Shown here in pieces: positions 4,885-55,028 of a stretch of DNA of 64,000 bases (positions are counted from its first letter, which is position 1; the number at the start of each line of letters is the position of its first letter). Source of the stretch: Escherichia coli (GTDB lineage Bacteria; Pseudomonadota; Gammaproteobacteria; Enterobacterales; Enterobacteriaceae); NCBI RefSeq assembly GCF_050920415.1, contig NZ_CP169309.1; one strand, given 5' to 3'. Position numbers and translations under genes: made by a program. The notes below the pieces were generated by a model, which ran no database searches, was not told the DNA's origin, and saw only the letters and a list, made by a program, of their open reading frames with translations.

Positions 4885-6385
<1,501 letters not shown>

Positions 6386-51296: not shown

Positions 51297-51328
51297 GGCG
51301 GCGCAGTTTGTTAAGAAGCTGCGCCGCC
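51297..51328. terminator. hairpin between convergent ydiP and ydiO
   Basis: 10-bp perfect stem ggcggcgcag / ctgcgccgcc with 12-nt loop, followed on plus strand by cagattatttgttctg. Confidence 0.65.
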
Positions 51329-52499: not shown

Positions 52500-54095
52500 T
52501 TAATGAGCCGCTTCAGGCAGGACAAAACCCATCGCCGCATCGATAAATAATCTTTCGTCCATCAGTTTGAGTTCTGGCGAAATCACTGGGGTGAAATCCA
52601 TTTTGTCGAGAATATCTTTTTGTAAATCGACGCCAGGAGCGATTTCGATTAAATGCAGGCCGTCTTCTTTTAGCGTGAATACGGCGCGCTCAGTGATATA
52701 ACGAACATCCAGTCCTCGCTCGAGAGCGATTTTTCCGCTGAAAGTAATTTCCGGTAGTTCCTGAATAAATTTCTTCACCCGTCCTTCCTGGACGATATTT
52801 AATTTGCCGTCGGCAATTTCTGTTTTTAAACTGCCCGCAGTTAATGTGCCGCAGAAAATGATTTTCTTCGAAGTGGCACTGATATCAATAAATCCACCGG
52901 TGCCCATGATTTTACCATTGAATTTATGCACGCCGACGTTACCGTGCTGGTCGACTTCAGCAAAACTCAAATAACAAACATCCAGACCGCCACCGTGATA
53001 AAAATCAAACTGGGACGTCATATCCAGAATGGCACGGGTATTCACGTTCGCGCCAAAGGCGATCCCCTGTGAAGTAATACCGCCAATTGGGCCTGTTTCT
53101 ACCGTCAGAATAAAGTCATCAGCACAACCTTCTTCCCGGGCGACCAGGCCAATGCCGTCAGCAATACCGACGCCGACATTCCCCACCGCGCCTTTGCGCA
53201 TTTCGAATAATGCGCGCCGTGCAACTAATTTACGTTGGTTTAGGGGTAGGCTAAGTTTGGTGCTGTCATCAAGGGTGAAGTCACCAGAAATAAAGCGGTT
53301 AACCGGCGCACCGCCATACAGTTGGGTTTGATCCGGATCGACTACCACAATATCCACCAGATAACCCGGAATACGGACAGATTTAGGATGCAGCGTGGCT
53401 TTCTTAACCATCTTCTGCACCTGCATCATCACAATACCGCCGTTATTGTGCACCGCCTGAGCAATAACCAATGCGTCGAGATACATCACCTCATCTTCAA
53501 AGGTGGCGTAGCCTTCGCTGTCGCAGGTGGTGGCGCGAATAAAGGCGATATCCGGCGCAATCGCTTTGTAATAGAGATATTCTTTGTTATCAAACTCGAC
53601 CAGTTTAATCAGGTCTTCTTTAGTGACTTCATTCAGTTTGCCGCCTTGCTGGCGTGGATCGACAAATGTTCCGATGCCAATATCACTAATAATACCAGGC
53701 TGGTGGGCTGCGGCGGCGCGTAAGGTTTGTGTAAGTACACCTTGTGGATAGTTATAAGCAATAATTTTATTTTGTTCTGCGAGATCAGAAATACGCGGCG
53801 ATTGTCCCCAGTGACCGCATAATGCCCATTTCACCAGACCTTCTTGTGCCAGCGGACTAATACCACGGTCGGCGCGATCGCCAAGCCCTGTTGGACTAAT
53901 AATCGATAAATTACGTGGTGTTTGAGTCTGTTTATATTTATCAGCAAGAGCAGTAATTAACGTGGTGGCTTCCAGAATACCGCCGCCAGCGCCTAACACA
54001 CAAAGTGTTGCTTCGTCGGGAATATAATTCACCGCTTCCTGTGCCGACAGGACCGGCACTCGTCCATTAATACGAGGTGGTTTTACAGGTTTCAT
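52500..54095 (-). CDS. ydiF: fused alpha/beta family I CoA-transferase
   Basis: 531-aa ORF; 3-oxoacid/acetate CoA-transferase signatures. Confidence 0.88.
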   Translation of the reverse strand: MKPVKPPRINGRVPVLSAQEAVNYIPDEATLCVLGAGGGILEATTLITALADKYKQTQTPRNLSIISPTGLGDRADRGISPLAQEGLVKWALCGHWGQSPRISDLAEQNKIIAYNYPQGVLTQTLRAAAAHQPGIISDIGIGTFVDPRQQGGKLNEVTKEDLIKLVEFDNKEYLYYKAIAPDIAFIRATTCDSEGYATFEDEVMYLDALVIAQAVHNNGGIVMMQVQKMVKKATLHPKSVRIPGYLVDIVVVDPDQTQLYGGAPVNRFISGDFTLDDSTKLSLPLNQRKLVARRALFEMRKGAVGNVGVGIADGIGLVAREEGCADDFILTVETGPIGGITSQGIAFGANVNTRAILDMTSQFDFYHGGGLDVCYLSFAEVDQHGNVGVHKFNGKIMGTGGFIDISATSKKIIFCGTLTAGSLKTEIADGKLNIVQEGRVKKFIQELPEITFSGKIALERGLDVRYITERAVFTLKEDGLHLIEIAPGVDLQKDILDKMDFTPVISPELKLMDERLFIDAAMGFVLPEAAH

Positions 54096-54239
54096 TGTTA
54101 ATTCCTGATTCAGGTGTAATTTTCCCTACGCCAGATGGAGAATTAGAGCGCAGAGACTCACGAAATATTTTTATTAAATACGGTTGAATATATTTTTTTA
54201 GTTCGGCGGGGGAGGGTATTCCCGCCGAAATATTATTGC

Positions 54240-54998
54240 TTATGCCTGATGTAAAATAGTTAATACCGTGCGCAAATCATTTACCGAGATTTGCCCTGGC
54301 GCAGAGGCTTTTTTTACCGCACCAAAAGTTGCCGCCGACCCAAATACTTCACCAGCCAGACGAGAAATTACGCCAGTTTTTGCCATCGACATCGTGATGA
54401 TTGGACGATCGGCATACTGCTCCTGCATCTCCAGGGTCGCGGCAAGCAACGTCAGCACATCGCTGGTACTTTGCGGCATCAGCGCAATCTTAGGAATATC
54501 GGCGTCGAAGGACTGCATTTTACGCAGACGGGCAATGATTTCTTCGGCTTCCGGCGTTTTATGGAAGTCATGGTTGGACATGACAACTTTCACATCATGC
54601 GCGTGGGCGTAGGCGACGGTTTCTTTAACTTGATCATCACCGGTAAATAACTCCAGATCGATCATATCAACCAGGCCGCTGTCGATGGCTGCACGATTGA
54701 GTGCAATATAAGCCTCGGTGGAAATCGCCTGCTCGCCGCCTTCTTTGGCACTGCGGAAGGTAAACAGCAGCGGTTTTTCTGGCATGGTTTCACGGAGAAT
54801 TTTTGCCGCTGCCATGACAGACTCCACATTGGATAGGTCGGCATAGTGGTCAACACGCCATTCCAGAATATCAAAGTCCGCTTCACGATAGGCGAGAGCT
54901 TCGGATTTCACGCTGGCGATATCTTTCGCCATCAGCGAGACGATGATTTTAGGTGCGCCCGTACCAATGACGAGATCTTTTACAGTTACGGTTTTCAT
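54240..54998 (-). CDS. aroD: 3-dehydroquinate dehydratase, type I
   Basis: 252-aa ORF; type I DHQase with Schiff-base Lys region. Confidence 0.95.
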
Positions 54999-55028
54999 TT
55001 TTTACCCTTTCTGCACGCGGTCAGCCTG

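Follow-up and report, generated by a model that had tools for sequence, protein, structure and literature searches.

The aroD-ydiF spacer of Escherichia coli contains a strong GC-rich hairpin that stands at a fixed position after the aroD stop codon, with no U tract at the junction. The hairpin is real, far beyond chance, and there is one per genome. Its best explanation, to which we would give about an even chance, is a U-tract-less 3' stem-loop that would define and protect the end of the ydiB-aroD mRNA, as in the class of stem-loops described by Dar and Sorek (2018; NAR 46:6797, PMC6061677). This end-protective reading is preferred because the hairpin is stop-proximal, selection falls on its stem and not on its loop, U-less hairpins recur at the junction, and the junction is generally without an intrinsic terminator.

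Location and structure of the hairpin

The window is the whole 64,000-nt stretch of E. coli DNA that was analysed. Gene assignments are taken from the open reading frame list and from the RefSeq annotation, for aroD that of identical or near-identical genomes. The features of the locus are:

55895-55029, minus strand: ydiB
54240-54998, minus strand: aroD coding sequence, type I 3-dehydroquinate dehydratase; stop codon TAA at 54242-54240
54096-54239: aroD-ydiF spacer, 144 nt
52500-54095, minus strand: ydiF coding sequence, acyl-CoA:acetate/3-ketoacid CoA-transferase, downstream of aroD on the same strand
54230-54239, minus strand: A/U-rich spacer from the aroD stop to the hairpin, sense GCAAUAAUAU, 10 nt; 10-13 nt in all GTDB hairpin-bearing genera, its sequence not conserved
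54221-54229, minus strand: hairpin 5' arm in the aroD-sense RNA, UUCGGCGGG, from sequence and fold; invariant in 13 E. coli haplotypes, its core GGCGGG nearly invariant across genera
54211-54220, minus strand: hairpin loop, sense AAUACCCUCC, 10 nt (9 nt in K-12)
54202-54210, minus strand: hairpin 3' arm in the aroD-sense RNA, CCCGCCGAA, from sequence, fold, haplotypes and alignment
54193-54199, minus strand: A7 run, two bases past the hairpin in the sense RNA (on the plus strand, a T run before the hairpin), from sequence
54164-54181, minus strand: separate conserved AT-rich motif, sense GTATTTAATAAAAATATT; invariant columns in an 18-sequence spacer alignment that includes the hairpin-less clade; helix 2 of RNAalifold; single exact match in the window

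Read on the plus strand, the region is ...atattttttt ag TTCGGCGGG ggagggtatt CCCGCCGAA atattattgc TTA. The plus-strand arms TTCGGCGGG (54202-54210) and CCCGCCGAA (54221-54229) form nine perfect pairs, seven of them G-C, around a loop of 10 nt. The original prediction had placed this 9-bp GC-rich inverted repeat at 54203-54229; the repeat and its end hold, and the true start is one base earlier, at 54202. It was also right in assigning the hairpin to a 144-bp gap upstream of ydiF and in noting a T run ahead of it on the plus strand, seven T at 54193-54199.

In the sense RNA the order is stop-GCAAUAAUAU-UUCGGCGGG-AAUACCCUCC-CCCGCCGAA-CU-AAAAAAA-UAUAUUC. The aroD stop codon and the start of the hairpin are 10 nt apart, and past the hairpin the RNA reads CU-A7, with no U tract; the hairpin's sense 3' flank CUAAAAAAA (ACUAAAAAA) has a single U in 8. 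The A7 run belongs to an A/U-rich stretch of ~40 nt that is predicted to be unpaired in a 215-nt fold, and the upstream flank is only loosely A-rich. A second stem is predicted by the same fold in the ydiF leader (CUCUGCGC...GCGUAGGG, 54113-54158, minus strand); across genera, RNAalifold retains no more than 3 bp of it.

Allowing up to 3 mismatches, the window should contain the arm pattern 0.03 times by chance; one occurrence was found. The window has perfect 9-bp hairpins with at least seven G/C at 3 loci, whereas random sequences of matched dinucleotide statistics, generated by a first-order Markov model of the window, give 0.34. The minimum free energy of the sense RNA is -17.6 kcal/mol (z = -4.2; range quoted -15 to -17.6), a stability reached by none of 200 shuffles, and the hairpin is kept in both the MFE and the centroid fold of the 215-nt context. 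It was found in 5407-5421 of 5426 complete E. coli genomes at one full-length place per genome, second places being short chance matches, and there is one copy in the window. Queried with the 221 nt around it, 5425 of the 5426 genomes gave a match, that to NZ_AP027764.1 being 100% identical. The Rfam 15 covariance models gave no match at E <= 10 in 53500-55000 on either strand, and a literature search found no paper discussing the spacer and no published description of the hairpin. Hairpins of this general kind, stop-proximal and U-less, are common even inside the window.

An extragenic palindrome between same-strand genes recalls the REP/BIME elements, for example at malE-malF. Such intercistronic palindromes are thought to block 3' exonucleases and so to stabilise the mRNA of the upstream cistron. 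The aroD hairpin differs in being single-copy in the window and the genome and in having no Rfam match, and membership of a REP-type repeat family was rejected on its copy number. We also take it to show no REP consensus. True REP-like sequences past aroD were seen only in Salmonella enterica subsp. arizonae and diarizonae (L034, L055), where aroD is followed by REP-like palindromes and a convergent gene, and ydiF is not adjacent.

Variation within E. coli

Thirteen E. coli haplotypes were picked across the identity range. None of the 18 arm positions varies among them, against 5 of the 10 loop positions (C/T changes and one indel); the probability of all five variable sites falling in the loop, computed from these counts, is 0.0026 (hypergeometric). 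At the level of haplotype sequences this shows purifying selection on the stem rather than on the loop. Two metagenomic E. coli variants have lost the innermost pair alone (GGCGGA). The A run varies from 6 to 8 in length among strains.

The loop at 54211-54220 is a C/T hot spot within E. coli, which could reflect either relaxed constraint or deamination of an exposed single-stranded loop. A rearranged junction was seen in E. coli VG888-46E9 (NZ_CP128581.1; L008 1495-1510): an IS1 end is joined right after the last G of the first arm, TTCGGCGGG|GGTGATGCTGCC, aroD is intact, and ydiF, ydiO and ydiP are deleted.

Conservation across genera

One genome per species with AroD was scanned (80 loci), and the order ydiB-aroD-ydiF is kept in 41 species representatives. 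It reaches Yersinia, Dickeya, Serratia and the betaproteobacterium Sutterella (YdiF 83% identical). AroD identity is 68-84%, consistently below that of its neighbours YdiB and YdiF (~85-93% in Enterobacterales). This pattern suggests block transfer and a possible functional or transcriptional link between the shikimate/quinate and acyl-CoA genes. The persistence of the order out to Yersinia, Dickeya and Sutterella likewise hints at co-transcription or a functional link.

A homologous hairpin, GGCGGG(AA)...(UU)CCCGCC, lies 10-13 nt past the aroD stop in other Escherichia, the Citrobacter amalonaticus group, Kosakonia and Intestinirhabdus. One metagenome lineage has the hairpin ~28 nt past the stop, and a metagenome lineage with an AroD only 74% identical bears TCGGCGGGAA...TTTCCGCCGA. 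The span of GGCGG...CCGCC is 21-23 nt in 28 sequences, and no hairpin-bearing genus lacks an A-rich flank (UAAAU/UUAAAA). The sequence between aroD and the hairpin has diverged between genera, and the flanks have diverged almost completely while the hairpin was kept. The hairpin lies 93-131 nt from the ydiF start (~270 nt in Intestinirhabdus, by subtraction) and 17-27 nt from the conserved AT-rich motif, as measured on the 18-sequence spacer alignment. Since the latter distance is also fairly constant, position alone does not decide whether the hairpin is tied to aroD or to the ydiF control region.

The junction is structured differently in other clades. In the C. freundii complex the GC hairpin is deleted, ydiF and the AT-rich motif are retained, and another hairpin, 29-40 nt past the aroD stop, has been strengthened (-16 to -23 kcal/mol). 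In the same complex (L014, L016, L018, L020-L025, L057) the AT-rich motif lies inside a long strong hairpin, CTGCCCCAGATATTCG...CGAATATCTGGGCAG, ~30-75 nt past the stop and again of -16 to -23 kcal/mol, which may compensate for the lost GC hairpin. Yersinia and Dickeya have a hairpin of unrelated sequence 17-20 nt past the stop, and Serratia sp. H1w retains the first arm TCGGCGGGAA with the outer partner bases lost. A few more lineages (L131, L132, L138, L142, L157, L114/L124) came from scanning metagenomes with ydiF as the anchor; they left the picture unchanged.

Base pairing was assessed in a 17-sequence alignment from Escherichia, Citrobacter, Kosakonia and Intestinirhabdus. In it 82% of the cells are paired, compared with 76% in shuffles (0 of 500 reach 82%) and 34-53% with slid 3' partners. 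The helix is 6-10 bp in every clade, by an outward TTC/GAA extension in E. coli and an inward AA/TT (AA/UU) extension elsewhere. A full compensatory change to a different Watson-Crick pair is found at 2 of 10 pairs, and four one-sided changes are G.U in the aroD-sense RNA. With the metagenome lineage included, one-sided changes amount to five G.U versus two A.C, both A.C at the innermost pair; the 5:2 ratio is not statistically significant, and the excess of G.U is only suggestive of selection acting on the sense RNA. Folding energy does not discriminate the strands: the two RNAs are of similar stability, with an edge for the antisense one in most taxa.

Could the palindrome have been kept by descent, with no function? 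The core is conserved in sequence and true covariation is little, with the two fully compensatory pairs, as such a reading would have it. It is nevertheless extremely unlikely, given that the hairpin outlasted spacer flanks that have almost fully diverged between genera, that its arms are invariant and its loop hypervariable in E. coli, and that ~0.03 such patterns are expected per window by chance.

The AT-rich motif and the control of ydiF

The original prediction proposed that the repeat is an operator-like site for YdiP or another factor. In this case a dimeric protein regulating ydiF would read the palindrome as double-stranded DNA, and the ydiF promoter would lie downstream of it, around the AT-rich motif. 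Several observations agree with it. The hairpin resembles palindromic transcription factor operators in that its inverted half-sites are conserved, its centre is variable and the spacing is near-constant: GGCGG and CCGCC scarcely vary, and their span hardly changes. It stands within the short distance given above of the AT-rich motif, of consensus TATTY-N5-RAATAT. Serratia sp. H1w keeps an arm despite the loss of the outer partner bases, and ydiF is without a promoter recognisable as sigma-70 in the scan, which suggests activator dependence. Conserved half-sites at fixed spacing are not discriminating, because a conserved hairpin gives the same pattern.

Unlike such operators, the hairpin has been lost in a clade that keeps its presumed target, since the C. 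freundii complex retains both ydiF and the AT-rich motif, and it has undergone substitutions that preserve pairing. The compensatory and G.U-type changes and the clade-specific extensions that hold the helix at 6-10 bp are not needed by a protein that reads sequence. Nor does the hairpin recur anywhere in the window or the genome, the surroundings of ydiQ or ydiP included. PtrR binding mapped by ChIP-exo is inside ydiF, and not at the hairpin. AraC-family sites, moreover, are usually AT-rich and often direct repeats. An operator at the hairpin is hence left unsupported and is unlikely.

The AT-rich motif is the most widely conserved block of the spacer, and no second copy of it occurs within the window. 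In Citrobacter and Kosakonia it takes the form of a clean palindrome, TGAATATTC-N5-GAATATTCA (TGAATATTC-N5-GAATATTCAGYGG). The motif at 54164-54181, which does not belong to the hairpin, is a likely candidate for an operator or core promoter of ydiF, and it is a better operator candidate than the hairpin. For the regulation of ydiF, it is the AT-rich motif that is the element of first interest.

Sigma-70-like promoters were sought by a scan of 53900-54500, and none was found on either strand. A promoter formed by the arm and the A-rich tail (sigma-70, sigma-E or sigma-54) was checked by eye and rejected, because spacing and key bases do not fit and are not conserved. These results bear on a further proposal of the original prediction, a transcript-stabilising 5' stem: the ydiF mRNA would start at or just upstream of the hairpin and carry it as a 5'-terminal stem-loop. 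Stem-loops of this kind are known stabilisers of mRNA, ompA being an example, and in E. coli a TAATAT hexamer stands directly before the stem. The hexamer has no acceptable -35 at 16-18 bp and is not conserved in the other hairpin-bearing genera, nothing else -10-like is conserved upstream of the hairpin, and no promoter-like site passes the scan. The proposal finds no support and is most improbable.

Terminator analyses

In being GC-rich, 9 bp long and 10 nt past a stop codon, the aroD hairpin is like a canonical intrinsic terminator. It differs in that the sense strand has A7 in place of the U tract (at least 5 U of 8, starting 0-2 nt past the stem). A consensus terminator scan found no minus-strand site around the hairpin. 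This and the U-poor sense flank bear out the original prediction in its view that aroD has no canonical intrinsic terminator in this hairpin. The same applies to related junctions: a terminator-like site is present on the sense strand at only 4 of 42 aroD-ydiF junctions, the U tract is absent in 38 of 42, and none of the 41 best hairpins has at least 5 U in the next 8 nt. The possibility of a relic terminator from a convergent gene was discarded, the homopolymer run being on the wrong side for either strand.

The hairpin might still act as a weak non-canonical intrinsic terminator or attenuator of ydiB-aroD, with U-less release that NusA or NusG might promote, along with the weak rA:dT hybrid formed at the A run. 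A GC-rich 9-bp stem right past the stop codon has the place and shape usual for a terminator, the spacer contains no other terminator, and every hairpin-bearing genus has an A-rich tract past the hairpin. The RNA polymerase of E. coli generally requires a U tract for efficient release, and this defining element is missing both in E. coli and at the related junctions. Among the ends listed in the thresholded Term-seq and bicyclomycin tables of Adams et al. (2021), which cover the neighbourhood, none lies at K-12 1772000-1778000 on either strand, and the supplements of Yan 2018 and TERMITe have no aroD or ydiF entry. This alternative, which has a low probability, differs from the end-protective reading only in whether the hairpin itself releases polymerase.

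A lenient consensus scan called the hairpin terminator-like on the plus strand, with the tail ATATTATTGC. A call was also obtained in the C. amalonaticus group (tail TTTATTTCGC) and, via a shorter inner stem, in Intestinirhabdus; in all, 5 of 42 scanned junctions gave plus-strand calls, the hairpin-bearing sequences numbering 17. The hairpin could accordingly be pictured as a plus-strand terminator that halts antisense transcripts from ydiF or its control region before they reach aroD, and the antisense RNA folds as well as or better than the sense RNA in most taxa. This is quite unlikely. The U-rich flank that it would need is not conserved, with 3 U in 8 in Kosakonia, in E1V33-type Escherichia species and in C. 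amalonaticus S646; the promoter scan yielded no antisense promoter-like site; no gene is known from annotation on the plus strand there; and the one-sided substitutions in the interior of the stem would be A.C mismatches in antisense RNA.

Another GC-rich hairpin of the window, GGCGGCGCAG...CTGCGCCGCC at 51298-51327, lies between the convergent genes ydiO (minus) and ydiP (plus). In contrast to the U-less aroD hairpin it is U-rich on both sides (6 and 4 U of 8), and by its sequence it looks like an ordinary bidirectional terminator.

A model for the 3' end of the ydiB-aroD mRNA

Rho-dependent transcripts of E. coli end just past stable stem-loops without a U tract (Dar and Sorek 2018), and PNPase and RNase II trim the RNA back to these stem-loops to give precise steady-state 3' ends (PMC6061677). 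The aroD hairpin is like this class in being a stable stem-loop just past a gene, in having a stem and loop in the size range of terminators, and in having no uridine-rich tail; a PNPase/RNase II barrier fixing the steady-state 3' end would be a further likeness, drawn by analogy. It differs in that a downstream excess of C over G is not evident and in that an A run follows, which is not described for the class.

The sequence downstream of the hairpin is G-poor (15/106) and dominated by A/U. A clear rut signature is absent, because C over G in 78-nt windows lies at 1.0-1.5, where the window as a whole has a median of 1.07 and reaches 1.64 at the 90th percentile. This speaks against the end-protective reading, and so does the lack of a listed 3' end at the site in the Adams et al. 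(2021) tables.

A model for the end-protective reading is as follows. Polymerase coming from aroD would pass the hairpin, because there is no U tract to allow release. The downstream RNA would then be ended by Rho, undergo RNase E cleavage within the unpaired A/U-rich stretch, or run on into ydiF; the ~40 nt past the hairpin would be a plausible entry point for RNase E or Rho. The 3'-to-5' exonucleases PNPase and RNase II would trim the RNA back and stall at the base of the 9-bp GC stem. The outcome would be a defined and protected aroD mRNA end, and aroD would be uncoupled from the weakly expressed ydiF. In this mechanism, the sense RNA as the relevant molecule, 3' end formation at the hairpin and the identity of the factor that ends or cuts the RNA downstream are what we infer.

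A more elaborate possibility is that the hairpin and the conserved A-rich tail form a regulated intercistronic gate within a single ydiB-aroD-ydiF(-ydiO) transcription unit of deep conservation. In that unit the A run could have a further role, at the RNA level as a handle of the Hfq or poly(A)-like kind, or at the DNA level as an UP-like element. We consider this possibility very unlikely. If true, such a gate would set the flow of polymerase or of stable RNA from the quinate/shikimate genes to the acyl-CoA genes, and would link two pathways that are now annotated as unrelated.

Significance

The end-protective reading would make the aroD hairpin an ordinary example of a known element type, of little importance beyond annotation. 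The small surprises are the depth of its conservation, an A run where a terminator has U, and a terminator-poor junction in a gene order that is conserved from Escherichia to Sutterella. Across 42 species, the aroD-ydiF junction almost never has a canonical terminator and nearly always has a U-less hairpin. If confirmed, the end-protective reading would provide a defined 3' end for the ydiB-aroD message. It would also explain how, with no intrinsic terminator, a constitutive gene of the shikimate pathway is kept insulated from ydiF-ydiO, which are poorly expressed.
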